DNA of 12,366 bases from positions 128,001 to 140,366 of the IMG/VR virus record IMGVR_UViG_3300033069_001798; one strand, given 5' to 3'. Of the stretch, positions 1 through 12,366 are shown one piece after another. The first letter of the stretch is position 1. Every line of letters begins with the position of its first letter. The notes beneath the pieces are model-generated. The model saw only the letters and a list, made by a program, of their open reading frames with translations. It ran no database searches and had not been told where the DNA came from. This DNA is from a virus (Duplodnaviria > Heunggongvirae > Uroviricota > Caudoviricetes). Both the position numbers and the translations under genes were made by a program.

Positions 1-666
1 AAGGCTCAAGAGAATCAAGTTAACCTTCTTCACATCTTCGAAGATGAATGGAAAAACAAGCGTGACATCGTCTGCAGCATGATCGATCATAAGCTTAAGC
101 TTCATTCTAAAAAGTACGATGCAAGAAAGTGCACTGTGCGAAGCGTGAGCACGCAAGAACGTAAAGCATTCTTCAACGTGAATCACATCGATGGAGACGT
201 TGCTAGCAATGCTGCGTACGGGTTGTTTGAAAATGATGAGCTGCTTGCTTGCATGTCAGTAAGAAAACCGTTTCATTCTGCGCACAAAGATGCAATTGAA
301 ATTGCTAGAGCGTGCTGCGTGTCAAACGTTAACGTCAGAGGATGGCTGGGTCGTCTGACAAAGCACTGTGCTGCACAGTCAAAGCTGATGGGAGCACGCA
401 AGATGATATCTTACATCGACACTCGACTAGGAACAAATGGCAAGTCATGGGAACGCGCTGGTTGGAAGTTTAATTCTTCTACGCCTCCACGATTCTGGTG
501 GACTGACTTTGACAACCGCTTCAATCGCTTCAAGTTCAAAGCCAACAAACCCATGGGTCTGACTGAAGCTCAAGTTGCAGAAGAAGCTGGCGTTGTCAAG
601 ATATATGGGTGCGGCAACATGCTCTACGAGATGGCGCTCTTACCGTCTCTACGGCCCACAGATTGA
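1..666 (+). CDS. Hypothetical protein, 5'-partial. Frame 1 is open from nt 1 with no stop before the first ATG at 79, so the gene probably starts upstream of the window. It carries an N-H-I-D-G-D...N motif like the His-Me/HNH core of phage homing endonucleases such as I-HmuI. This is a possible nuclease.
   Basis: I translated frame 1 by hand: nt 1..78 give KAQENQVNLLHIFEDEWKNKRDIVCS with no stop, joining the listed 195-aa ORF. The stop is TGA at 664..666. It is the only plus-strand gene at this end and is convergent with the minus-strand module. A bidirectional terminator lies just downstream. The motif 'FFNVNHIDGDVASNAAYGL' resembles 'VNHIDGNKTNN' of HNH_3 endonucleases. This motif call is weak and rests on memory only. 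Confidence 0.5.
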   Translation, partial: KAQENQVNLLHIFEDEWKNKRDIVCSMIDHKLKLHSKKYDARKCTVRSVSTQERKAFFNVNHIDGDVASNAAYGLFENDELLACMSVRKPFHSAHKDAIEIARACCVSNVNVRGWLGRLTKHCAAQSKLMGARKMISYIDTRLGTNGKSWERAGWKFNSSTPPRFWWTDFDNRFNRFKFKANKPMGLTEAQVAEEAGVVKIYGCGNMLYEMALLPSLRPTD

Positions 667-728: not shown

Positions 729-1070
729 TCAGCTTCTCTTGCCCACGCCTGCCCAAGGGTCTTTGGTCATGCTTGAAGCTGAAGTGCTATTGAGCCAGTT
801 CATCACTGAATCGATGTTTGATTCGATCTGCGTGATCGCCTTCAGCAGCTGCTGAGCCTTCTCAGACTCAGAAGTGTTCTGCATCAGCTCTGACACGGCT
901 CTCTTTGCACCCTCACGGCCAAGCTGCTTCTTGGCAGTCTGAAGGGAAGTGTACAAGTCTCTAAGCGGACCCTGGACTTTGGCTTGCTCCATGGATGCTT
1001 CGGACAGTTCAGCCTCTTCCTTCAGAACTTCCTTGATTAGCTTTCTTAGCTGCGATTCAGTAATTTTCAT
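729..1070 (-). CDS. Hypothetical 113-aa protein. It is predicted to be all alpha-helical or coiled-coil, rich in K/E/Q/A/S. Function unknown. It is not tube-like.
   Basis: The ORF has an ATG start (cat at 1068..1070) and a TGA stop (729..731). It begins 13 nt after the HEG stop and is followed by the bidirectional terminator. I found no recognisable motif. There is no strong SD upstream (cacttaatacttaactttagATG). Confidence 0.5.
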   Translation of the reverse strand: MKITESQLRKLIKEVLKEEAELSEASMEQAKVQGPLRDLYTSLQTAKKQLGREGAKRAVSELMQNTSESEKAQQLLKAITQIESNIDSVMNWLNSTSASSMTKDPWAGVGKRS

Positions 1071-1083
1071 CTAAAGTTAAGTA

Positions 1084-1905
1084 TTAAGTGACGTGCTTCC
1101 AACACGTTCTTCTGACAATTCCGCATATCAACTCTGGCGTCACAGAATATTTTTCAGCCATATGTCTGTAGAAAATTGATTTTGCACCAAATTTAGTTAC
1201 ATCAACTTGCTGGAAGTCTAGTCTTATTTGTCGAATAGTTTCTTCTGACAATTTTGCACTTGAATTATTCTCACCTTGTCGTTTTTTGATTTCTCTCTGA
1301 CGAAAGTCTTCATCTTCTTTCCATTTCTTCTTCAACTTGGAGCCGGTTATTGGACTTTTGCCGGTATGATCATTTGATGAACATTCAACAATGGGCCCAA
1401 CACCCATCCACAATCTGCCTTTAATGATGTGGGTTATAGTGTCTGGTTTAACACCATAAAGCTTAGCATATTTTTGATAAAATTCACCCAACAACAACGT
1501 TTCGTATGGTTTTTCTTCATTCCATGCTGCTTTTATCTTAGCTACAATTTCTTCTGTCAAAATAGCCATTGGATTTCTACTGCCAGATCCAACGCCACCT
1601 CCGAGGATCATGTTATAACCACCGTAAGCAACATACGATTTAAGTTTTTCGATCCAAAATATTTCTAGTTGATTTGCTTGCTCTTGATTTTCACATATTT
1701 CTATAACTTCATGAAGAAAATTTTCTTCTCCAAAATCTCTAATTGCTACGTGAAATCTTAGTTTTGAATTCAATTTTGCATCTTTGCAATGTGATGCCCA
1801 TCTTTTGTACATAGACTCTTCAGCTGTATTTTCATTCAACGTTACTGTTTGCCCGACATAAATTTTCAAATTTAGTTTGTTTGTGTGTCTGTAGATAACA
1901 TGCAT
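1084..1905 (-). CDS. Freestanding GIY-YIG homing endonuclease of the I-TevI/Seg type, with a NUMOD-like linker and a C-terminal helix-turn-helix. The preferred start is the ATG at 1905 (273 aa). The track's 1944 start is a TTG inside the upstream terminator stem.
   Basis: From the ATG at 1905 the N-terminus reads 'MHVIYRHTNKLNLKIYVGQT...', matching the GIY-x10-YIG spacing of I-TevI ('SGIYQIKNTLNNKVYVGSA'). It has 'YKRWASHCKD' (R...H), 'EIFWIEKLKS' (catalytic Glu region) and 'GGYNMILGG' (the conserved Asn). 'GENNSSAKLSEETIRQIR' resembles I-TevI 'SGENNSFFNHKHSD' (NUMOD3). The C-terminus 'AEKYSVTPELICGIVRRTCW' is HTH-like, similar to the I-TevI tail. I checked that the codon at 1942..1944 is caa (TTG on minus) and the codon at 1903..1905 is cat (ATG on minus). 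The region is about 33% GC against about 47% in flanking genes. Confidence 0.85.
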   Translation of the reverse strand: MHVIYRHTNKLNLKIYVGQTVTLNENTAEESMYKRWASHCKDAKLNSKLRFHVAIRDFGEENFLHEVIEICENQEQANQLEIFWIEKLKSYVAYGGYNMILGGGVGSGSRNPMAILTEEIVAKIKAAWNEEKPYETLLLGEFYQKYAKLYGVKPDTITHIIKGRLWMGVGPIVECSSNDHTGKSPITGSKLKKKWKEDEDFRQREIKKRQGENNSSAKLSEETIRQIRLDFQQVDVTKFGAKSIFYRHMAEKYSVTPELICGIVRRTCWKHVT

Positions 1906-1942
1906 TAAGTTACTCAATTCAGTTGGTACTATTGTAACAAAC

Positions 1943-1971
1943 AAACGCTCGGATGAACAATCCGAGCGTTT
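1943..1971 (-). terminator. Hairpin terminator downstream of sheath paralog 2. It has an 11-bp perfect stem AAACGCTCGGA/TCCGAGCGTTT and a 7-nt loop. On the minus transcript it is followed by GUUUGUU.
   Basis: Seen directly at 1943..1971: aaacgctcggatgaacaatccgagcgttt. It lies 14 nt after the sheath-2 stop (TGA, rc of 1985..1987) and 37 nt upstream of the HEG ATG. It shares the CTCGGA-N7-TCCGAG core with the terminator at 673..703. Confidence 0.5.
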
Positions 1972-1984
1972 GAAGTTAACTGAT

Positions 1985-4900
1985 TCAGTTGGAAGTTAAT
2001 GCTGCTTGAATGTTGTTTGTTACAACAAAATCAAGACTGACATACTCTATCGTACGGGTTGGCTGCACGAAGATTTTTCCTCGAATCGTATTGTTCTCGA
2101 TGTCTGCTTGCGTCGTGGTTGAAGAATCAATGATGACCCTGAACCTCTCAAGACCAGACAGTGCCTGGATTCTCTGCAAACGTGGTGTGACGGCTGAAGA
2201 GAACCTTGCGAGCGTCGCGGCTCTGTTTGGCTCGAAGATGATCGTCCTAGAGATGTCTCTGACTTGCCTTCTGATCTCGATCAGGAGTCGTCTTACGTTG
2301 ACTCTGTCAAGAGCTGATGCAGCGGCCTGAAGCGTCTTCTGACCCCACACAACAACTCCGCCCTTCGGGCTAGTTCCACCAGATGCATTCCCTGGGAATG
2401 CAACGATTGGGTTGATGTTGACATCGTACAGAGCATCCATGTTCGTCTTGGACAGCTGAACTCTTGCTTCCAGCGTCGTCGACAGAGCGCCTCTGGTGAA
2501 GCCTGCTGGTGCAAACCATGGGTGACCCACCGCGTCATTCAACGCTAGTGCGCCCAGGACTGCGACAGAAGGAGGAACCACGAGGTTAGTCTTCGTGTTA
2601 GGATCTGGCATCACAACGTCTGGGAAGTATGCAGCTGCAAAACTGTTGTCAACTGCCCTAGAGCTGAACGATGAAGCCGTCGACGTGACAGAAGGCATCT
2701 GGCTGTCTGACGTGACTTCGGTGCCAGTGTTATCAAACTGCTCGATATCCATGATGTATAGAGCGTCGAATCTCTCCCTTACTGCATCTGCAGCAGCATC
2801 TGTTACGATTGCATGCCTGATGCCTGGGATTGCTAGAAGTTGGACATCAACGCTGACGACGTTCTTCATGATCTCTAGCGCTTTTGCGTAAGATCTTACG
2901 TTTGCACCTTGATCACGATTTCTTGTCGAAGAATTCATGTCTGCAGTGACTGCGGCGTTGTTGATCTCAACAGAGTCTCTGTCAAAGAGATTGACGCCAT
3001 CGAAACCACCTTGCATCAAGAAGGAGAACTTTGCGTACCTTCTGTTTGCCTGAATCAAGTCATTGACAGAGAATCTACGAGTCTTGGCAGAATCAGAAGC
3101 AGTGATGTTTCCATTCCTGACATACTGAGCAGATGCCCACTGAGCAGAATCAGCGTACGTGGTCGAACCGGTCACAACTTGGATATTTTCCAGCGTGAAC
3201 ATGTTGTTGCAGAACCTATCTGCATCGATGATACCCCACGTGTCTGTGTCAACGTCTCCCGTGTTGTCACCAACTGAGAAGTTCTGATTCACAGTAGAGA
3301 AGTTAGGGAAGTACTTGGCAAAAGCCTTCATCGAATCGTTCTTATACGTCGATGCATTTGGTGTTGACAAGCTGGTGACATGCTCAAACTGAGCGCCCCA
3401 GTAGAGAAGCGGGTTCACTTGAACCTTGTTGCCGCTGCCGGCAGTGATGTTGGTTCTCATTGGAAGAGGTGGAGTGACCACTCTCTTCAAGTAAGTTCCT
3501 GCGCTAAGCTGCGTTCCTGCGATCGACGTCAAAGGAGCAGATCCAGACGTGACCAGGTGCTCAATACCCCTGAAACCCATCGGAAGTGCTGTTGGATCGA
3601 CAGTCTGGTTCTCAACGCCAGGATCAACTTCCACTCTTACGAGGTTGGAGTTGGACGTGTAGTTTCCATCTACAACAAGCTTCTGTGCCGGTTCTGAACG
3701 ATCGAAGTCATAGAACACATGAGCATCGCCGATGATCTTAGCAATGTAACGATCAGAGCTTGGATCGAGCGACAAACCTCTGAACTGCTCCAGAGGAATC
3801 AAGTTACCGTCTCTATCAGACCAGTCTCTCAAGACAAGATCGAAGGTACCGTAACGATTCTGCGAATCAGACGAAGGTGTGATGTTCTCGATAGACACCT
3901 TGTAGAGAGTAGAAACTCCAGCGCCGGCGTCGAGAGCGTGCAACCTGAATAGGTTAGCTGCTGAACCACCGAACTTCTGAGAGATAACCCAAGGGGACTT
4001 AGCATGGGAGAATCTATCAGAGAATGACTCGTAGTTTGGTACAGTCGAAGAACCAAGATTTCTTCCAAGTGAGCCAGTTGTCAAGAATGCTGATGATTCC
4101 TGACCAGACTTAGCAACTCTAGAACCCGCGGCACCGCTGACTGGGTACACTAGACCAGAACCAGTGACTGCTGCAACGGCTGGGTGGATGTCCCAAGATG
4201 CGTACAGGTAGTGACCTGCTTGCTGCATCTTGTAAGGATCAGTGTTCAGAACGTTTGCAAAGTAATTTGGTGAAGTAAGATCGAAGGATGCAGTGATCAC
4301 GTTCGGGTACAGAGGATCTGTTCCCTTGTGGCCGTTGAGAAGCATGACAAAGTCTTGCTTCGAAACTGATCCATCTGTCAAAACAACTGCACCGATCATG
4401 CTGCCGTTTGCAGTAGCATCTGTAGCAACAAGCGTGGAAGAAGGAGCTGAGTTCGTTCCTTCAGCAGACGATGAGAGGCGAAGGATGACGCCAGAAGGTG
4501 CCATAAGCACACCTCTGAGGACTGGAACTGAGCTTGTGATGCCAGGTGTTACAGAACCTGCGCCCTGCAGGCCTGCATCAGAGAACGCTGTTGAACCAGC
4601 AGACTCTGACATGAAGGCGCCGAGGAAATACGTTCTTCCAAGCGGTGATCCAAGCGTTCCAGAGTTTGCATAATCGTTTCCAGCTAGAGCACCATCAGAT
4701 GATCGTGGTTGCAAGCTACCAACTGTGAAACCTGCGTTTGTGACAGAGCCAGCAGTCGTTCCATCAGCAACTCTTTGCTTGCCGTCACCTACACCAAGAA
4801 CTCGAACGTACGTCAAAGCTCCGGCGTTTCTTAGCCACTCAGTAACAGCAAGCGGACCGAACTTTTTTCCGTCTGTCTTGCCGAACTTTAGGTAGAAGTC

Positions 4901-5056
4901 ATCGATAGAACCAACGGTGACTGGCACGAATGCCGGACCCTTTGTTGCAGTTCCGATGACGCCGGCTGGGATGCCGACAGGTTGCTGAACAACTGGACCT
5001 GATAGGTCAATTTCTTTTGCTGAAACTCCAGCACTTCCAAACTTTATCTGTGACAT
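1985..5056 (-). CDS. Tail sheath protein, paralog 2. It is gp18-like, very large (about 1023 aa from the ATG at 5056), with the conserved N- and C-terminal sheath-core regions.
   Basis: The C-terminus reads 'ALDRVNVRRLL...FEPNRAATLARF...FRVIIDSSTTTQ...IFVQPTRTIEYVSLDFVVTN'. T4 gp18 reads 'DRINVRRLFN...FELNNAFTRSSF...YRVVCDTTNNT...FYIQPARSINYITLNFVAT'. 'WFAPAGFTRGAL' matches gp18 'WMSPAGYNRGQIL'. The N-terminus 'KGPAFVPVTVG' matches gp18 'WGPAF'. The track start at 5083 is TTG (caa at 5081..5083) inside a hairpin. The ATG at 5056 (cat at 5054..5056) gives an N-terminus (MSQIKFGSAGVSAKEIDLSGP...) that aligns exactly with paralog 1 (MPEQTFKSPNFYEREIDLSAP...). A GAGG lies 6 nt upstream. Confidence 0.9.
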   Translation of the reverse strand: MSQIKFGSAGVSAKEIDLSGPVVQQPVGIPAGVIGTATKGPAFVPVTVGSIDDFYLKFGKTDGKKFGPLAVTEWLRNAGALTYVRVLGVGDGKQRVADGTTAGSVTNAGFTVGSLQPRSSDGALAGNDYANSGTLGSPLGRTYFLGAFMSESAGSTAFSDAGLQGAGSVTPGITSSVPVLRGVLMAPSGVILRLSSSAEGTNSAPSSTLVATDATANGSMIGAVVLTDGSVSKQDFVMLLNGHKGTDPLYPNVITASFDLTSPNYFANVLNTDPYKMQQAGHYLYASWDIHPAVAAVTGSGLVYPVSGAAGSRVAKSGQESSAFLTTGSLGRNLGSSTVPNYESFSDRFSHAKSPWVISQKFGGSAANLFRLHALDAGAGVSTLYKVSIENITPSSDSQNRYGTFDLVLRDWSDRDGNLIPLEQFRGLSLDPSSDRYIAKIIGDAHVFYDFDRSEPAQKLVVDGNYTSNSNLVRVEVDPGVENQTVDPTALPMGFRGIEHLVTSGSAPLTSIAGTQLSAGTYLKRVVTPPLPMRTNITAGSGNKVQVNPLLYWGAQFEHVTSLSTPNASTYKNDSMKAFAKYFPNFSTVNQNFSVGDNTGDVDTDTWGIIDADRFCNNMFTLENIQVVTGSTTYADSAQWASAQYVRNGNITASDSAKTRRFSVNDLIQANRRYAKFSFLMQGGFDGVNLFDRDSVEINNAAVTADMNSSTRNRDQGANVRSYAKALEIMKNVVSVDVQLLAIPGIRHAIVTDAAADAVRERFDALYIMDIEQFDNTGTEVTSDSQMPSVTSTASSFSSRAVDNSFAAAYFPDVVMPDPNTKTNLVVPPSVAVLGALALNDAVGHPWFAPAGFTRGALSTTLEARVQLSKTNMDALYDVNINPIVAFPGNASGGTSPKGGVVVWGQKTLQAAASALDRVNVRRLLIEIRRQVRDISRTIIFEPNRAATLARFSSAVTPRLQRIQALSGLERFRVIIDSSTTTQADIENNTIRGKIFVQPTRTIEYVSLDFVVTNNIQAALTSN

Positions 5057-5080
5057 CCTATGCCTCTGCAGTGTAAGTAT

Positions 5081-5113
5081 CAATCTTTCCGCACACTACG
5101 TGCGGAAAGATTG
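5081..5113 (-). promoter_or_regulatory. Intercistronic stem-loop between the two sheath genes. It has a perfect 14-bp stem CAATCTTTCCGCAC/GTGCGGAAAGATTG and a 5-nt loop ACTAC. There is no U-tract, so it is not a canonical terminator. It is a candidate attenuator, RNA-processing or stability element.
   Basis: Seen directly in the sequence. The left arm is 5081..5094, the loop 5095..5099 and the right arm 5100..5113. It lies 23 nt after the sheath-1 stop (5137..5139) and 24 nt before the sheath-2 ATG at 5056. Confidence 0.5.
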
Positions 5114-5136
5114 TTGTTGAACTCGTAATTTCACCA

Positions 5137-8100
5137 TCAGCCGAACGTGACTCCGCTGTTCGTAATGATAAAGTCGATTGCGATATACTCGATTGTGCGT
5201 GTTGGAACAATCATGATCTTTCCGTTGAGGCGGTTAAGATCGACGTCTTCCTGCGTGTTGTTCGTTTCGTTCATCACAACTTGGAACTGCTCAACACCAG
5301 CTTGCGCCTGGATGAGTCCGAGTTGCAACGTTGCATCTGCAACGAACTTGTTTCTAACTTCTGGCGTGTTGTTCTCAAACACGCCGCGCTGTGCGATGTC
5401 AATGATGATTCTCTTGACTTCTAGGAGGAGGCGCCTGACATTGACTCTGTCAAGAGCAGACTTGTTGATCTGCAGCGTCTTCTGACCGTAGATCACAAAG
5501 CCCAACCTTGGGAAAGTTGCGATCGGGTTGATCCTAGAAGCATCAAGCCTATCTCTGTCAGAGACGTTCAATCTGACAGCAACATTGCTGACAAAGTCAA
5601 GAGACGCTCTGTTGAAACCTGCTGGTGCGAACCAAGGATATGCAACCCTGTCGTTGAATGCCAAAGCACCCATCGCTGCAACAGACGCCGGCACCTTGAC
5701 CCTACGCTTGTTCGTAGCATCATCGATGTATACGTCTGGGTAGTACGTTCCAGCGTAGTTGTTATCAATCGCTCTTGTGTCAACTTGCTCCGCCGTCTTG
5801 TCAACAGATGGGCGTGCTGTTGAATCATCGTACAGACGAGCTGATGCATCATCGTACGAAGGAATGTCCATGACGTAGTATGCTAGACCGTAGTCACGCA
5901 CCTTCTTCATAGCGTAATCAGACACAAACGTCTCTCTGATACCAGGGATCGTGAGGATGTTAGTGTTGACAGTCATTGGATCAGTCATGATATCAACTGC
6001 AGTCTTGTAAGACGCAACAGTCGAGTTAAGCTGACCAGTACCGCTTGGATTGAATCCAAGGCCTGGTGCGGTGTAACCAACTTCTGCTCCGCCACCCGCA
6101 TCGAACGATGATGCCTTATCGTTGAGCCTGCGTGCATCCCTATCAAGGATGTTGACGCCGTCCCAGCCGCCACCCATGAAGGTGACGAACTTGGTGAACG
6201 TAGAGAACTTGTTAAAGTTCGCTGCTGTGTCCTTTGCAAGGATCGTAGCTAGCGTAACTCTCGTTCCGATAGCTGAATCGTTGATCGTGTAGTTCGACGT
6301 ATCAAGCTTACCATTTCTGATGTACGCAGCTTCCTTCATGTGTTCGTTGACAGATGCAGTGAGGTGCGTGATCGCACCGTTGGAGAAAGCAACCTTTGCA
6401 AGCGTAAACTTGTTGTTGTTGAACGTGTCTGCACCAGATCCGCTTACCAGAACATCGAGCTTATCGATGCCAAGGAACTTCGTGTAAGATGCAAGCAGCG
6501 CGTTCTTCTCGCTGACAAGATTTGGGTTCAGAGCATTCGTGTTTCTTTCGAACTTAACGCCCCAGTAAAGCTGCGACAAAACAAGCTCTGTTGAACCTGG
6601 GAGACCTTGCCAAGCTGCACCAGAAGGTGCATCGCCCTTCGTAACTTTCACTCTGAAAGGCACTGGTGGGAGCAAGGAACCAGACAGAGAAGATGCAACA
6701 GATACGCCCAACGATGCCGCCAACCTTGACGTTGCTGTCGAAGGAGACGTATCAGTCAGAAGATCGTTTGTCTTTGGAAGCTGATGTCCATGAAATCCGA
6801 ATGGAAGCGTCTTCTGAGGAACTAGTGCCCTCTCGACTGCGTCAGTCATGACGATTCTGACGTACCTAGACTTGTTATCGTACTTTCCGAAGGTGACAAT
6901 CCTGCGCTCGGCGTCGACAGTTGCATCAAAGTTAAACGTAACCTTTCTATCACCAACTAGCTTCGCAACGTAGTTCGCAGCGGTTGGATTCAAAGAGCAG
7001 TTAGGGAATGACTCTAGAACCTTAGGATTCGTGTCCGTGTCTGTCCAATCTCTCACCTGCACGGTGAACGTACCGTAAGGGTTTGAATCATCGAGCGATG
7101 CCTTAAGATCAGTAATTGCAATCTTGTAGAGAGTGTTTGCGTATTCACCATCATCAAGAGCTTCAAACTTGAACAGATCGTACTCAGTTGCACCGAAAGG
7201 TTGCGAGATGAAGTACGAAGTTGATGGTGCCTTGTATCTAGTGTCGAAAGCACCAAACGCTTTCCTCATTGCTAGCGTGGTATCACCAGAATTAGCTGAA
7301 GTGACATTCGACCCAGAGAGGACGCCGACGACTGTTGCTGTTGCTAGCTCATCATCAACTGGGAAATCAGCATACAAGTAGTGCTGCTCAGAGACGAATT
7401 TGTCCGGATCCGTGTTAAGGATCTTCGCAAAGTAATCTGCGTCAGTTGGGTTCAAGCTAGCAGTGAAGATCTTCACGCCTGGGTTATTGTCTGAATTCCA
7501 GAACGTGTTTCCCAACGTAGAAGAGATGATCAGCTTGAACTTGCCGCTAGACAACGTTGCTGAATCAGAGTTAGATCCGTTGAACGTTCCAAGAGGTGCC
7601 GCAGTTCCACCGCCAAGGACCATGACCCTCGAAGAGGTTGGTGTCATGATCATGCCTCTAATCAAGTTAACAGTAGAACCAGTGTAAGAATCGTTGTCAG
7701 TGAAGAGCGGGATTCCGTAAGCTTCATTCGTCTGCAGCGTGTGCCGAGCAGCAAGGAACTGCACCGCACCGTTGTGACGACCAAGGTTATCGTGAGCCGC
7801 TGCCGTTCCATTCAAGTACATGCCTGCCGACAGAACTCGACCGGTCGTTTGAGTCGTAAGAATGTCAGAAGAAGATGCGTTTGCTCCCGCACCAAGGACT
7901 CTCAAGTACGTTAGAGCGGTCTTGTGCTGCAAGAATTCTTTGACAGCATACGGTCCAAATCTCTTTGGATCTAGATTACCAAATCTAGCTACGAATTCAT
8001 CAAAATTTCCAACAGTGACCGGCACAAACGCTGGTCCCTTGTTGCTAGTTCCGATGACACCAGCCGGTACGCCGACGGGACCTGCAATCTGCGGAGCTGA

Positions 8101-8154
8101 AAGATCAATTTCGCGCTCGTAAAAATTTGGTGACTTAAATGTTTGCTCTGGCAT
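5137..8154 (-). CDS. Tail sheath protein, paralog 1. It is gp18-like and 1005 aa.
   Basis: The start is ATG (cat at 8152..8154). The N-terminus 'EREIDLSAPQIAGPVGVPAGVIGTSNKGPAFVPVTVGNFDEFVARFGN' aligns with the T4 gp18 N-terminus ('...TGTAALAGKFQWGPAF...NEVDLVNTFGQP'). The C-terminus reads 'WFAPAGFNRASL', 'FVIYGQKTL', 'ALDRVNVRRLLLEVKR', 'VVMNETNNTQEDVDLNRLNGKIMIVPTRTIEYIAIDFIITN'. This closely parallels the gp18 C-terminal domain. Identity to paralog 2 is about 40-55% in the conserved blocks, by eye. Confidence 0.9.
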   Translation of the reverse strand: MPEQTFKSPNFYEREIDLSAPQIAGPVGVPAGVIGTSNKGPAFVPVTVGNFDEFVARFGNLDPKRFGPYAVKEFLQHKTALTYLRVLGAGANASSSDILTTQTTGRVLSAGMYLNGTAAAHDNLGRHNGAVQFLAARHTLQTNEAYGIPLFTDNDSYTGSTVNLIRGMIMTPTSSRVMVLGGGTAAPLGTFNGSNSDSATLSSGKFKLIISSTLGNTFWNSDNNPGVKIFTASLNPTDADYFAKILNTDPDKFVSEQHYLYADFPVDDELATATVVGVLSGSNVTSANSGDTTLAMRKAFGAFDTRYKAPSTSYFISQPFGATEYDLFKFEALDDGEYANTLYKIAITDLKASLDDSNPYGTFTVQVRDWTDTDTNPKVLESFPNCSLNPTAANYVAKLVGDRKVTFNFDATVDAERRIVTFGKYDNKSRYVRIVMTDAVERALVPQKTLPFGFHGHQLPKTNDLLTDTSPSTATSRLAASLGVSVASSLSGSLLPPVPFRVKVTKGDAPSGAAWQGLPGSTELVLSQLYWGVKFERNTNALNPNLVSEKNALLASYTKFLGIDKLDVLVSGSGADTFNNNKFTLAKVAFSNGAITHLTASVNEHMKEAAYIRNGKLDTSNYTINDSAIGTRVTLATILAKDTAANFNKFSTFTKFVTFMGGGWDGVNILDRDARRLNDKASSFDAGGGAEVGYTAPGLGFNPSGTGQLNSTVASYKTAVDIMTDPMTVNTNILTIPGIRETFVSDYAMKKVRDYGLAYYVMDIPSYDDASARLYDDSTARPSVDKTAEQVDTRAIDNNYAGTYYPDVYIDDATNKRRVKVPASVAAMGALAFNDRVAYPWFAPAGFNRASLDFVSNVAVRLNVSDRDRLDASRINPIATFPRLGFVIYGQKTLQINKSALDRVNVRRLLLEVKRIIIDIAQRGVFENNTPEVRNKFVADATLQLGLIQAQAGVEQFQVVMNETNNTQEDVDLNRLNGKIMIVPTRTIEYIAIDFIITNSGVTFG

Positions 8155-9526
8155 CGATCTTCTCTTCTGTGGTTGGAATCGCTACGATAAGTATCAAAGG
8201 TTCTTGACGAAAACCGCGTGAGATTGGTGCTAATCCATCGATCACTTCTATTGACAAGTCGCCCATGTCTACGCCCGTCGAGTAGACTGTTTCACCAGTG
8301 TTAGAATTAACAGTTGTGATTCGAACGAACCTTTCAACAAGTTCACCACGAGAATTACGAGCCAAGTATCTCTTGTACTGAGGTGGGTTTCTTCCCCTTG
8401 AGAATGCTTGAAGAGCTGGATCATTTGGATCGATCTGTTCGCTAGCAATGAACAGACGACCTCGCCCAGTTTCTCTTTGATCACGTCTACCATTTCTAAC
8501 GGCAGACAACGGCAACGTCGGATCGTCAGCTCCCAAGAATGGATCATCAACGCCATCTCTAACAGTTGCTTCTGGCAACGGTAGACCGACGCTAAAGTTA
8601 ACTTCTGGGACTGAAACGTAGCGCTTCACAGCTAGCGGCACGCCTGGTGCTGACGATGCCAAGATGTACGCAGGAACGTTGATCTCAAACTTCGTCTTGA
8701 TCATCCTTTCCGCGGTGCTCATGTCATCAAAGTTCATGTCTGGCGTGAAATTTTCATCTGCTAGCGTTGCAACGAACCAATAACCGGCTGGTGTTGAAAG
8801 TTTCCAACCACGTGTCTGCGGCAAGAAAGAAGAGATCAACGTCTCAAGCAGCTGATTCATCTGTCGACGGTACTGCGCCCAGATCTCAACTTCGTACGTT
8901 GCTGTGTAAAACTGCGGTGATGGAACAACAAGCGTCTCGTAGATGTTGTTTGTGCGATCTGGTACCATCAAGCCGCCATCAGCAACGATTCCAACTTCAT
9001 CCCCGAGCTCGCCGACGCGGCGCTCAGTGGCTAGCTGACCGCTGTCAGCCATCGCAACTGGCACACCAAGCCCACTCGAGTGACGCAGAAAAACTCGATT
9101 AATCAAACCTTGGTAGCTACGGTCTGAATTATCTAGTTTTCTTCTCACTATGATCTCGCCGGTCATCTGGTTGATTCCCCGACCGGTGATGTCAGTGACT
9201 GGTGATTGCGTTATGTTAGTACGTCCGATCACTATGATCGGTAGGATCAAAGAACCATTCTTGTCTCTTATCGACTTGTTCTTCTTGATGAGTGCCCACT
9301 TCTCACCACCGGCAAAGATGATCGGTACTCTTTTCGTACCGGTGCCTTCACCTTCTGTCACTAGCAACGGCAACTCTTTGTTGAACAACTGGAACAAGGA
9401 CACATCGACGTCTTCAATCCCTACTGGCGGGATGGCGATGGACGTAGTCGGGCCTTCTGGGTACCCAGATGGAAGCGGTGCTACACCGTGATTGACTGCT
9501 CCTCTAGCGTTAAATCTGTTGGTCAT
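8135..9526 (-). CDS. Hypothetical virion structural protein of 463 aa. It lies immediately upstream of sheath paralog 1 and overlaps its start by 20 nt. By position it corresponds to a tail terminator / sheath stabiliser (T4 gp15). There is no sequence-level support for that role.
   Basis: It has an ATG start (cat at 9524..9526) and a TAA stop (rc of 8135..8137). Its ATG overlaps the upstream gene's stop as ATGA. No ATPase or terminase motifs were seen. The assignment is by synteny only. Confidence 0.6.
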   Translation of the reverse strand: MTNRFNARGAVNHGVAPLPSGYPEGPTTSIAIPPVGIEDVDVSLFQLFNKELPLLVTEGEGTGTKRVPIIFAGGEKWALIKKNKSIRDKNGSLILPIIVIGRTNITQSPVTDITGRGINQMTGEIIVRRKLDNSDRSYQGLINRVFLRHSSGLGVPVAMADSGQLATERRVGELGDEVGIVADGGLMVPDRTNNIYETLVVPSPQFYTATYEVEIWAQYRRQMNQLLETLISSFLPQTRGWKLSTPAGYWFVATLADENFTPDMNFDDMSTAERMIKTKFEINVPAYILASSAPGVPLAVKRYVSVPEVNFSVGLPLPEATVRDGVDDPFLGADDPTLPLSAVRNGRRDQRETGRGRLFIASEQIDPNDPALQAFSRGRNPPQYKRYLARNSRGELVERFVRITTVNSNTGETVYSTGVDMGDLSIEVIDGLAPISRGFRQEPLILIVAIPTTEEKIDARANI

Positions 9527-10197
9527 GGATCCTCATCGTAGAATGATGATCCGACGCCGTCTGGATCGCCACGCGAGGAAACCTCGCGAGCTCCAGTAAG
9601 CGGAGGATCTAGAACGCCAGCTCTCACCAAATCTCTTACATCACCGGTCGGCTCGCCTCGAGAATCCAACGACTGACCTCTCTGCTGTTCAAACGTCTTC
9701 TGGACTGCATCATCTTCTGGCCGTGAGATATCTGTTGGACCCATGAGAAGCGCCTTGAATTGCTCTTCTCTTGCCTTCAAACCGACGATCTTCACGCCGT
9801 CTTTGTGCTCTGGCAAACCGTAGATGTTTCTCATGACTTGTTCTTCGGTAATCTCGTAGAACACGTCGTTGAAAGAGAAGAAATCACCTATCTGGACGTT
9901 TATTCCTTTCTCAACGATGTCTCTGTATTGAACGAACAATTCAAGCTTGTATTGCTGGTCAACGCCGTACTTTCCGATCTTGGTATCAATCTGGTACTGG
10001 GAATCGACAAGAGCATCGATGATTATCGGATTATCAAAAACTTTCTTGATCGCTTCGTTGTAGATTCCTACTGTCAAAGTCTTTGCTTCTGAGATCGGAT
10101 AATAGTAGATCTTCTGGCCAACAATATCCTTTATCAGTTCTTTTGTGATATCTGATATGAAGTTAAGTTCTCTTGGAGTTATGAACAATCGTGACAT
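9523..10197 (-). CDS. Hypothetical structural protein of 224 aa. It has a folded domain of about 155 aa followed by an acidic, Gly/Pro/Asp/Arg-rich disordered tail of about 70 aa. By position it is a neck/tail-completion protein (T4 gp14 position).
   Basis: It has an ATG start (cat at 10195..10197) and a TGA stop overlapping the next ATG (9523..9526). It lies 6 nt after the 392-aa gene. The tail 'RPEDDAVQKTFEQQRGQSLDSRGEPTGDVRDLVRAGVLDPPLTGAREVSSRGDPDGVGSSFYDEDP' is low-complexity. Confidence 0.55.
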   Translation of the reverse strand: MSRLFITPRELNFISDITKELIKDIVGQKIYYYPISEAKTLTVGIYNEAIKKVFDNPIIIDALVDSQYQIDTKIGKYGVDQQYKLELFVQYRDIVEKGINVQIGDFFSFNDVFYEITEEQVMRNIYGLPEHKDGVKIVGLKAREEQFKALLMGPTDISRPEDDAVQKTFEQQRGQSLDSRGEPTGDVRDLVRAGVLDPPLTGAREVSSRGDPDGVGSSFYDEDP

Positions 10198-10203
10198 ATT
10201 TCA

Positions 10204-11382
10204 TCATCCAATCACGATTGCATGCGGCATAGGAACGAAGCGCAATTGCTTCTGCAAGTTTTCTGCTAGAGTTGCTTGCTGCTCGACGAGCTTAGCATTC
10301 GTCAGATTATCAAGGAATTCCTTCAGCTGCGTTAGAAGCTTCTCTTTGTCTTCTCTTGCTGTCGAAACTAGAGACTCACCGTTCAACTGCAAGTCTGCGT
10401 TAGGAATCGGAATAGACTGAAATTTCGATCTGGTGATTCCAAGCAACTCTCTGCACAGCGCAAGAGTGTACTGCCTGATCCATTGACGACCTGGTTGAGT
10501 GATCGTTGCAAAAGGGATGTTTCCTAGCGGCACGTTCTGCGGTCCGGAAACGCCGTAGATAGTTTGATCCAATCCTTGCAACGCAGTTGCATTCAGAGGA
10601 TCAGATGCACCAGCTTGAACTTTAACGAACAACTTACCCAGCTGAAGAGTCGTAGAAGGAATCGGAAATATTCTAAGTTTGCTACCGATGATCTCATAGC
10701 TGTAGTTTGACCTTCTCACTCTGAACGCTGCTTCAAGCATCCCTCTCCTAAGAACGTCTTCAAAGATCGGCAGCACGTAGAACACGGTGCTGTTGACGTA
10801 AGACTCGTAGTTGAAGTTCGTTGCTAGAAAGTTGGTGATGTTGCTAGCGTTAAGCAAAAAGTGCTGAGCAGCTAGCGGCTCCATGTGAAAGACTTCAATG
10901 ATGCGAATTGGACTCTTTGTCGTCATGTTGGTGTATATAACGCTGCCAGAGACTGCATCCTTTAGTTCAGTGTAGATGTTGTAATCCTGACGTCCTGCCT
11001 CGAGATCAAAGTAGCCCAACGTTGCATCGTACGAACCTCCAACGCCAGCGTAGGAAGCATACGGCGAAGCCTGCCTCATGAGATACTCAAGAGTCTGGTG
11101 CAAGTAACGGTTCGTCATGTCATTCAAGCTTCCAGTCGGCATGCCTAGCACGTTTGCCAGCTCTGACTGGATCTTCATCTCGTGAACTTTCCTTGCGTAC
11201 TCGCAGCATGCTTCTTCAAAGCATGCCCATATCTCTTTCTTCGACAGCTCGACAGACAAGACATCATCGCCGAGCTTTCTCTTCACGAAAGTTACCATGC
11301 CGTCTGCTTCTGTCTGAAAGCTAGCATCAGAATCGAAAAATCCAAAAGGCGTTGGCCTGATTGTTTGCACAAACGTTGACAT
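10204..11382 (-). CDS. Putative neck protein of 392 aa, gp13-like.
   Basis: It has an ATG start (cat at 11380..11382) with a strong SD upstream (AAGGAAAG, 9-nt spacer). The N-terminus 'FVKRKLGDDVLSVELSKKEIWACFEEACCEYARKVH' resembles T4 gp13 '[34 protein letters not shown]'. The C-terminus '...ALCRELLGITRSKFQ...NGESLVSTAREDKEKLLTQL...PMPHAIVIG' resembles the gp13 C-terminus '...ALAKELNGQILARHQG...[20 protein letters not shown]...PFGILVG'. I recalled the gp13 sequence from memory and it needs confirming. Confidence 0.55.
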   Translation of the reverse strand: MSTFVQTIRPTPFGFFDSDASFQTEADGMVTFVKRKLGDDVLSVELSKKEIWACFEEACCEYARKVHEMKIQSELANVLGMPTGSLNDMTNRYLHQTLEYLMRQASPYASYAGVGGSYDATLGYFDLEAGRQDYNIYTELKDAVSGSVIYTNMTTKSPIRIIEVFHMEPLAAQHFLLNASNITNFLATNFNYESYVNSTVFYVLPIFEDVLRRGMLEAAFRVRRSNYSYEIIGSKLRIFPIPSTTLQLGKLFVKVQAGASDPLNATALQGLDQTIYGVSGPQNVPLGNIPFATITQPGRQWIRQYTLALCRELLGITRSKFQSIPIPNADLQLNGESLVSTAREDKEKLLTQLKEFLDNLTNAKLVEQQATLAENLQKQLRFVPMPHAIVIG

Positions 11383-11484
11383 TCTTTACTTTCCTTTTCG
11401 ATCTAGCACTACGAATATGTATTGAACGTAACCCGGTTGAACTCATGTATGCAACGTTTATCTGAAGAGAGGTACAGTTAAATT
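11383..11484. promoter_or_regulatory. Divergent 102-nt intergenic region. It presumably carries promoters for the minus-strand structural operon and for the plus-strand zinc-ribbon gene. It contains a TTGAAC direct repeat (11431..11436 and 11447..11452). No canonical T4 late promoter (TATAAATA) was found.
   Basis: This is the only sizeable non-coding gap between divergent starts (11382 minus, 11485 plus). The -35-like TTGAAC hexamer occurs twice, 16 nt apart. The SD elements for both genes lie at the edges of the gap. Confidence 0.3.
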
Positions 11485-11874
11485 ATGGCTAGCAATGTTG
11501 GCGACGAGCTGGTTCTAAACATCGAAGACAACTTTGGGTACAGGGACAAGACGATCAGGCAGATCAAAGTCCAGATCATCAACGTCTCATACGATGAATA
11601 CGATTCATCGCCGATGTATCTCTGTTACGTCCCCAATTATTTGACCCATCCAGGGTCATTTAAGATTAGCGAACTCACTTGCAAAAAGTTCAAGCTAGCA
11701 AAGAAGTGGCTTGGTGAGCAAGCAGTCATGGTGCAGCACGTTGCATCAATTGCGCGCCGAATTGAAGCACCTCGAGGCGAACAATGCACGCGGTGCAAGG
11801 ACTTTATCGTTGGTGCATCTAAGAGCGAAGACGAGTTTCGCTGCAGAGCGTGCAAAGAAAATCCTTGGCGTTAA
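11485..11874 (+). CDS. Hypothetical small protein of 129 aa with a C-terminal zinc ribbon (CxxC-x17-CxxC).
   Basis: It has an ATG at 11485 with GAGAGG 11 nt upstream, and a TAA stop at 11872..11874. The sequence 'CTRCKDFIVGASKSEDEFRCRACKENPW' is a four-Cys zinc-ribbon pattern. The N-terminal 85 aa have protein-like composition. The gene overlaps the 3' end of the minus-strand partial ORF by 129 nt in antisense register. Confidence 0.5.
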   Translation: MASNVGDELVLNIEDNFGYRDKTIRQIKVQIINVSYDEYDSSPMYLCYVPNYLTHPGSFKISELTCKKFKLAKKWLGEQAVMVQHVASIARRIEAPRGEQCTRCKDFIVGASKSEDEFRCRACKENPWR

Positions 11875-12366
11875 CTTTGAGAAGCGCTGGGCGAGGCGCT
11901 TGATGCTAGCTAGAGCATCTGGCGATGTCTTCGAAGCATAACGCTCACGAAGCGTAGAAGCTGAATTAGCTCTCGCCGAAGAAATGTCTTCTGAGACACT
12001 TGGCGTTCTTGGCGCTGGACGTTGCTCAAAAGTCAGCTTCTCAGCAGATATCTCTTTCTTCTGCACGACAATCGGCGTTGCTGTCACCTTGAACTCTTGC
12101 GTTGAAGGCTTCTTCTTCACCTGAATCGATTCAGCCATGACCTTCAATGCTTTCTTGAAGGCGATCTGAAACTGCACTGGCGCGAAATAGCGATTCTCGA
12201 TCAGAACTTCCACTCGAGCGTTGTAAGTTCCCTCAGCTAGCCTTGAAGACATCTGAGGTAGAACAAACTGGACAACGCCATCTTCACCGGTACCATAACC
12301 GTTGAACATGTAAGATACGTCTTCGCCTTCGCACACCAATCGAACTTTAGCAGGTGACGGAGATGA
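11746..12366 (-). CDS. Hypothetical protein, N-terminus outside the window. It has a beta-rich, Ig-like-looking segment followed by a K/A/S/R-rich low-complexity C-terminal region. The last 40 or so codons overlap the zinc-ribbon gene.
   Basis: The minus-strand frame is open from the window end (SSPSPAKVRLVCEGEDVSYMFNGYG...) down to a stop at 11746..11748. The segment 'VQFVLPQMSSRLAEGTYNARVEVLIENRYFAPVQFQIAF' looks like a folded domain. The distal roughly 100 aa (ARANSASTLRERYASK...RALFASRCFNSARN) are junk-like. They could be a shadow of plus-strand coding or a disordered basic tail. Confidence 0.45.
   Translation of the reverse strand, partial: SSPSPAKVRLVCEGEDVSYMFNGYGTGEDGVVQFVLPQMSSRLAEGTYNARVEVLIENRYFAPVQFQIAFKKALKVMAESIQVKKKPSTQEFKVTATPIVVQKKEISAEKLTFEQRPAPRTPSVSEDISSARANSASTLRERYASKTSPDALASIKRLAQRFSKLTPRIFFARSAAKLVFALRCTNDKVLAPRALFASRCFNSARN

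Follow-up and report, generated by a model that had tools for sequence, protein, structure and literature searches.

A lineage-specific stem-loop and an adjacent candidate late-promoter motif between the tandem tail-sheath genes of an uncultured T4-like phage

The 80-nt spacer that separates two tandem tail-sheath genes in a 12,366-nt stretch of phage DNA (positions 128,001 to 140,366 of IMG/VR record IMGVR_UViG_3300033069_001798, hereafter the window) contains a perfect 14-bp stem-loop which, at a probability put at about one half, acts as a lineage-specific and dispensable transcript-end element for the message of the upstream gene, sheath-1. Comparison with related phages indicates that the feature conserved at this location is not the stem but a short promoter-like motif abutting it, together with the Shine-Dalgarno site that follows, and the motif probably drives the downstream gene, sheath-2, on its own.

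The hairpin itself is of little import, being one more lineage-specific stem-loop located after a highly expressed phage structural gene. The comparison does, by way of contrast, yield (G/T)ATA(C/G/T)TTA as a candidate consensus of the late promoters in a large clade of T4-like phages, uncultured and widespread in the environment, in which tandem sheath paralogs, each apparently equipped with its own promoter, form a conserved feature. Both the consensus and the two-sheath layout should be of help in genome annotation and in the design of expression studies.

The stem-loop and its flanking genes

The relevant features of the window are as follows.

5137-8154, minus strand: tail-sheath paralog 1 (sheath-1), 1005 aa, PHROG 23 match
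5057-5136, minus strand: sheath-1/sheath-2 spacer, 80 nt from the sheath-1 stop to the sheath-2 start
5081-5113, minus strand: stem-loop with a perfect 14-bp stem and a 5-nt loop
5063-5066, minus strand: GAGG Shine-Dalgarno site, 6 nt before the sheath-2 ATG at 5056
1985-5056, minus strand: tail-sheath paralog 2 (sheath-2), 1023 aa from ATG 5056, PHROG 23 match
1942-1972, minus strand: sister hairpin with a perfect 13-bp stem and a 5-nt loop, 12 nt past the sheath-2 stop and followed by UUUGUU
1084-1944, minus strand: GIY-YIG homing-endonuclease gene
672-702: third hairpin, a perfect 12-bp stem between convergent genes
79-666, plus strand: HNH-type homing-endonuclease gene, with PHROG matches and no Pfam match

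The two genes flanking the stem-loop were assigned by their matches to PHROG 23 (tail sheath; E = 3e-54 and 3e-58), both also giving weak Pfam sheath-domain matches, and their products are ~35% identical to one another. The sheath-1 stop codon occupies 5139-5137 and the sheath-2 ATG lies at 5056, coordinates which, like the PHROG 23 matches, agree with an initial annotation of this DNA that had described an 80-nt spacer between two sheath paralogs. All long ORFs around the stem-loop are on the minus strand, and the gene upstream of sheath-1 gave a sub-threshold match to the Pfam T4 gp15 tail-sheath stabiliser family (E = 1.2e-4; 21.8 bits against a cut-off of 25 bits). At ~1000 aa each, the two sheath proteins are far longer than the 496-position PHROG 23 profile, which aligns to their C-terminal parts only.

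The program-made sheath-2 ORF (1985..5083) extends to a TTG at 5083 that was confirmed, as had been noted previously, to be inside the stem. It is ATG 5056, preceded by GAGG and opening the N-terminus M-(S/A)-Q-(I/L)-K-F conserved in all relatives, that is the real start of sheath-2.

On the plus strand the stem-loop reads CAATCTTTCCGCAC-ACTAC-GTGCGGAAAGATTG, and the transcribed spacer as a whole reads UGGUGAAAUUACGAGUUCAACAA-(CAAUCUUUCCGCAC-GUAGU-GUGCGGAAAGAUUG)-AUACUUACACUGCAGAGGCAUAGG-AUG, with the stem-loop, which begins 24 nt past the sheath-1 stop, in parentheses. A repeat search returned the two arms (5081-5094 and 5100-5113) as 14-nt segments, 100% complementary and 5 nt apart, with seven of the 14 pairs being G-C and neither G-U pairs nor mismatches present. 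Folding of the minus-strand transcript, as the initial annotation had advised, gave a stable hairpin of -22.0 kcal/mol, the same value being obtained for the other strand; within a 121-nt context it formed an independent helix not lengthened by its flanks. Repeat search and fold thereby bear out the perfect 14-bp stem-loop previously placed at 5081..5113. When the same 121-nt context was shuffled, the z-scores were -3.1 for the minus strand and -3.8 for the plus strand, and none of 200 shuffles proved equally stable.

The likelihood of such stems arising by chance was assessed with 300 dinucleotide-preserving shuffles of the window, none of which contained a perfect stem of at least 13 bp, while stems of at least 12 bp occurred at a mean of 0.007 per shuffle. 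The window itself contains three of at least 12 bp, all intergenic, each directly downstream of genes and with no sequence in common. The 14-bp hairpin is thus far beyond chance expectation.

The nucleotides that follow the stem are AUACUUAC on the minus strand (3 U in 8) and UUGUUGAA on the plus strand (4 U in 8), such that the earlier statement that neither strand carries a U-tract was essentially right. A terminator scan placed the stem-loop below threshold on both strands, the sister hairpin at 1972-1942 being reported by the same scan, and an Rfam 15 covariance-model scan of the whole window returned no match overlapping 5057-5136 at E <= 1.

Comparison with related spacers

A blastn search of cultured phages with the region gave no match, and tblastn recovered only distant T4-like sheaths, the best at ~31% identity over 72% of the query. 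Relatives were therefore drawn from uncultured phages: 25 loci from IMG/VR (56-100% sheath-2 identity, on contigs of up to 369 kb) and 80 more from a metagenome collection (44-79%). A sheath-1-like gene was located directly upstream of sheath-2 in 104 related loci, and the tandem pair was present in every related locus examined, these deriving from many different metagenome projects; it is accordingly a feature of the clade. The possession of two sheath proteins was known before from the unrelated PaBG-like jumbo phages (PMC7412058).

The sheath-1/sheath-2 spacers of ~100 related uncultured phages comprised 79 distinct sequences with a median length of 51 nt, of which 55 were no longer than 62 nt, and a stable hairpin was found in none of these 55. 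Hairpins of -10 kcal/mol or stronger were recorded in 12 spacers representing 11 lineages, starting 8-52 nt past the sheath-1 stop, with sequences unrelated to each other and to the window stem. Most had a U-rich run at the end of the stem or directly after it, as in the following examples.

L004: GCGGCCCUAACUAG...CUAGUUUAGGGCCGC + UUUCUUUC, U-rich tail (DNA: TTTCTTTC)
L029: tail + UUUUUUAU (DNA: TTTTTTAT)
L056: tail + UCUUCUUU (DNA: TCTTCTTT)
L012: ...CCCGACC + UUUUUC (DNA: CCTTTTTC)
L007: ...CGCCUU + UGUUU (DNA: TTTGTTT)
L072: tail + UAUUUGUG (DNA: TATTTGTG)

The occurrence of unrelated hairpins at the same position, mostly with U-rich tails, is what turnover of terminators would be expected to produce, and those with such tails appear to be ordinary intrinsic terminators that come and go. 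Among relatives at 78-83% protein identity, L002 and L005 had no hairpin while L003 and L004 had unrelated ones. The window hairpin is distinctive in two respects, namely its poor U tail and its immediate contact with the next conserved element, which no other strong hairpin shows.

Conservation of the stem among relatives, to which the initial annotation had looked for support, was not observed. When IMG/VR was scanned for the exact stem pattern, a single copy was found, in a contig (IMGVR_UViG_3300033121_002020; L001/L026) that matches the window at 97.6% identity across 11 kb, and a scan of the metagenome collection for closer relatives yielded none closer than 79%; in all 77 other distinct spacers the stem was either absent or replaced. 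The hairpin of the 97.6%-identical contig is identical, no substitution separating it from the window between positions 4980 and 5139, and hence there are no compensatory changes in the spacer that preserve the stem. As the only other copy is the same across the spacer, it offers no covariation evidence, and function and neutrality are inseparable by comparison. A dispersed repeat or mobile hairpin family was considered and rejected, the stem having been found once in the IMG/VR scan.

Outside the spacer, divergence between the window and L001 is patchy over the 11 kb, with no difference in 6251-7250 and two in 6251-8750, while other 250-nt bins have up to 19; such a distribution suggests mosaic recombination. 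At the extreme C-terminus of sheath-1 (5140-5179) a 5-nt indel and clustered substitutions give the two sheath-1 proteins different last residues and different stop positions.

Four divergent relatives (L003, L004, L012 and L021) share a segment, GGCCG(C/T)TT(T/C)(T/C)TTTCG(T/C)(G/A)G, located ~25-45 nt upstream of GATACTTA. In L004 it provides a strong terminator hairpin with its 3' arm and its U-tract, and in L021 an alternative pairing with an upstream arm is possible, which would result in two mutually exclusive terminator-like folds. Descent of the 5' arm of the window stem from the TTTCTTTCG tract of these four relatives was also considered, and set aside on the grounds of too weak an alignment.

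A candidate late promoter

The motif that adjoins the stem recurs in the window as listed below, together with the gene that the third copy precedes.

5074-5081, minus strand: GATACTTA, candidate late-promoter -10-like element for sheath-2, abutting the stem
8188-8195, minus strand: second GATACTTA, candidate sheath-1 promoter, 33 nt upstream of the sheath-1 ATG (core 8194-8188)
1078-1084, minus strand: third ATACTTA, 7 nt upstream of the 113-aa ORF at 1070
729-1070, minus strand: 113-aa ORF with no assigned function

The first base of the sheath-2 copy (5081) is also the last base of the stem, and its ATA[CGT]TTA core ends 17 nt before the sheath-2 ATG; the sheath-1 copy sits within the 3' end of the ORF upstream of sheath-1. 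With both strands counted, ATAnTTA occurs three times in the window, each copy being an ATACTTA that is located on the minus strand and closely precedes a gene start, as against 0.55 occurrences of ATACTTA expected.

In 60 of the 79 distinct spacers an ATA[CGT]TTA core was present no more than 55 nt upstream of the sheath-2 start, ending, in the spacers examined, 13-38 nt before the ATG with a GGAG-type Shine-Dalgarno site between the two. The same core is found before sheath-1 and sheath-2, before the third sheath paralog of those loci that have one, and before a ~162-aa gene comparable in size to a tail-tube gene, and on the coding strand the motif is located 13-42 nt before late structural gene starts. 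Counts in 18 non-redundant loci (463 kb with both strands included; ORFs of at least 100 aa, taken from the first ATG) placed 44 of 96 motif matches within 45 nt upstream of a first ATG, the corresponding values for same-composition controls being 3/96 and 5/109. Of the ATA[CGT]TTA sites listed near a gene start, 41 out of 42 were on the late-gene strand.

The T4 late promoter, TATAAATA, is an element that functions alone, without a -35 partner (PMC2988020), and the motif resembles it in being 8 bp long, A/T-rich and devoid of a conserved upstream partner, with xATAxxTA in common, equivalent to six of eight positions (PMC2988020). The resemblance falls short of identity: the T4 promoter is gp55-dependent, and its consensus differs from the (G/T)ATA(C/G/T)TTA of the clade, being itself essentially absent from the 463 kb of the 18 loci (one occurrence). 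As a short, A/T-rich, -10-type element with no -35 partner, situated on the coding strand close to late genes, the motif nevertheless has the attributes of a T4-like late promoter. From its position, strand, conservation and resemblance to the T4 element, we infer that it is the late promoter of the clade, with one copy for each sheath gene. A promoter-like motif directly before sheath-2 would mean that this gene is not dependent on read-through from sheath-1.

A sigma-70-like arrangement at 5083-5055 (TTGATA-17-TAGGAT) was also evaluated and set aside, seven such matches being present in the window compared with 11.5 in shuffles, and the conserved element being the ATAnTTA motif instead.

Proposed role and alternatives

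In the reading that is preferred here, sheath-1 would be transcribed from its own late-type promoter, GATACTTA at 8195-8188, with the mRNA starting downstream of 8188, and a hairpin would form in the RNA 24 nt past the sheath-1 stop. Given the lack of a U-tract, this hairpin could at most pause the polymerase or terminate transcription weakly or in part. It would serve mainly as a barrier to 3'-to-5' exonucleases, messages either terminated at the hairpin or cut further downstream being trimmed back to a sheath-1 mRNA that ends in the protecting -22 kcal/mol stem. Sheath-2 would be expressed mainly from the promoter-like element GATACTTA at 5081-5074, with transcription starting, by analogy with T4 late promoters, near 5068 and giving a transcript that does not contain the hairpin. 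The stem would in this way insulate two adjacent transcription units and set no obligatory protein ratio.

Several observations favour a role at the transcript end: the stem is perfect, independent and beyond chance, all three long stems of the window lie after genes, and hairpins occupy the same position in 11 lineages, mostly with U-rich runs. The hairpin is predicted to form in vivo, and may there terminate transcription or stabilise the RNA. The tail has only 3 U in its first 8 nt, so that the stem is unlikely to serve as an efficient intrinsic terminator, and of the functions initially suggested a 3'-stabilising or partly attenuating role for the sheath-1 message is the most plausible. 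Any such effect must be dispensable, since 55 of the 79 distinct spacers have no structure. The role so envisaged, that of terminator or 3'-stabiliser, is an ordinary one of a known kind, and optional in the clade.

Two familiar classes of hairpin offer a partial precedent. Like the intrinsic terminators that follow phage late structural genes, the window stem is a stable and fairly G+C-rich stem-loop tens of nt past a stop codon, and full intrinsic-terminator forms, comprising stem and U-run, occur at the same position in relatives and after sheath-2 in the window. The window stem differs from these in having no U-rich tract (AUACUUAC), the promoter-like motif of sheath-2 starting in the place of the U-run. 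Among intercistronic 3'-protective stem-loops, the classical example is provided by the REP hairpins of E. coli malE-malF. The window hairpin shares with them a stable, U-less structure between co-oriented genes, and like them it could impede 3' exonucleases and render the upstream message more abundant. However, REP is a dispersed repeat family whereas the window stem is single-copy, and in the window layout the downstream gene, sheath-2, apparently has its own promoter.

A different precedent, that of T4 gene e and I-TevI, was examined and rejected. In that system the ribosome-binding site is hidden by a hairpin on read-through RNA, the helix sequestering the Shine-Dalgarno site or start codon of the gene that follows, and transcripts from a late promoter avoid the structure (PMC3014915). 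The window resembles it in having a hairpin beside a late-type promoter, with only read-through transcripts carrying the structure. The GAGG at 5066-5063 and the ATG at 5056 are, however, 14 and 24 nt outside the helix and remain unpaired with it in both minimum-free-energy and centroid folds, and no translational block is thereby imposed.

The alternative that survives best, possible though doubtful, is that the stem is a young and near-neutral palindrome tolerated in non-coding DNA with no significant effect on expression, which could have originated by template switching or by inverted duplication of a local pyrimidine-rich segment. Its confinement to one lineage would be consistent with such an origin, as would its perfect complementarity, the freedom from G-U pairs and mismatches being that of a young repeat. 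Removal of the 33-nt hairpin, moreover, leaves a spacer of modal length (47 nt vs the clade median of 51 nt), the 5' arm aligns loosely with the TTTCTTTCG tract mentioned above, and most relatives need no structure at this spacer. Against this, the homology of the 5' arm is weak in alignment, each of the three long perfect palindromes in the window is directly downstream of genes, and the presence of independent hairpins at the same position in ~10 other lineages argues for recurrent selection rather than accident.

An RNA processing site, at which an endonuclease would cut read-through transcripts and separate the sheath-1 and sheath-2 messages, is unlikely. The candidate activities would be RNase E, acting in the single-stranded AUACUUA 3' of the stem, or RNase III, acting within it. 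A stable stem succeeded by an A/U-rich single-stranded segment would suit such processing, and in the absence of a U-tract read-through is likely; yet the A/U-rich segment is better explained as the promoter-like motif, present also in hairpin-less relatives, and the hairpin is unconserved. RNase III substrates, T7 R1.1-like hairpins included, typically extend to about two helical turns, with ~20 bp or more of near-continuous double-stranded RNA. The present helix, at 14 bp only, is shorter than this, and judged from such general knowledge its processing by RNase III as an isolated helix is unlikely.

Still less credence is given to a role at the level of DNA, whether as a palindromic operator or cruciform modulating use of the late promoter, or as the target or scar of a homing endonuclease. 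The perfect inverted repeat does overlap at its end the first base of GATACTTA, the window does contain two homing-endonuclease genes, and GIY-YIG-like genes are inserted in the same spacer of L010/L011, L040 and L041. On the other hand, the related contig (104 kb) and IMG/VR as a whole each contain a single copy of the stem, the three window palindromes have no common sequence, and the insertion in L010 is not flanked by a comparable palindrome; in addition, T4-type late promoters need no upstream element (PMC2988020).

Equally improbable is the notion that a U-less hairpin fused to the sheath-2 promoter operates, in this lineage of large T4-like phages whose tails are built from two (sometimes three) sheath paralogs, as a dedicated tuner of the sheath-1:sheath-2 ratio, for which the means could be RNA processing combined with differential stability of read-through transcripts, or a cruciform affecting a clamp-activated late promoter. 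The related proposal of the initial annotation, that the hairpin sets a required ratio of the two proteins, found no support, the stem being unconserved and 55 of 79 spacers lacking any structure.

Finally, very little weight can be given to a terminator for antisense transcription entering the late operon from the plus strand. In its favour, the hairpin is just as stable in plus-strand RNA, with a tail, UUGUUGAA, a little richer in U. Within the sheath-2 gene, however, neither a gene nor a promoter-like motif precedes the hairpin on the plus strand, the one gene on that strand (79-666) is already followed by a hairpin of its own (672-702), and the structure scored below the terminator-scan threshold.

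Neighbouring hairpins and inserted genes

The sister hairpin at 1942-1972, flagged as terminator-like in the terminator scan, is probably the terminator of sheath-2. It is located just upstream of the GIY-YIG homing-endonuclease gene, the program-made TTG start of which (1944) is inside the sister stem while the likely start is ATG 1905, and the sister hairpin may in addition restrain endonuclease expression. In relatives the ~162-aa tube-like gene follows sheath-2; its place is taken in the window by the homing-endonuclease genes and the 113-aa ORF.

The sheath-1/sheath-2 spacer is itself a recurrent site of insertion, and the five spacers longer than 320 nt contained inserted ORFs. Insertions were recorded in the following loci.

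L010, 5322-5942: GIY-YIG-like ORF, in one 687-nt insertion common to L010/L011
L040, 1210-1902: GIY-YIG-like ORF, from its N-terminal sequence
L041, 1059-1814: GIY-YIG-like ORF, from its N-terminal sequence
L055, 1212-2417, opposite (minus) strand: 401-aa ORF with repeated Cys motifs
L070, 1679-2440: 253-aa acidic ORF

The one spacer ORF that was searched, that of L010, gave no Pfam match and matched the PHROG 314 homing endonuclease (E = 5e-11).

In five of the related loci (L015, L016, L019, L022 and L025) a third sheath paralog (~9275-12337) was located directly downstream of sheath-2, to which it is ~48-53% identical, and in L019 it is preceded by an ATAGTTA of its own.
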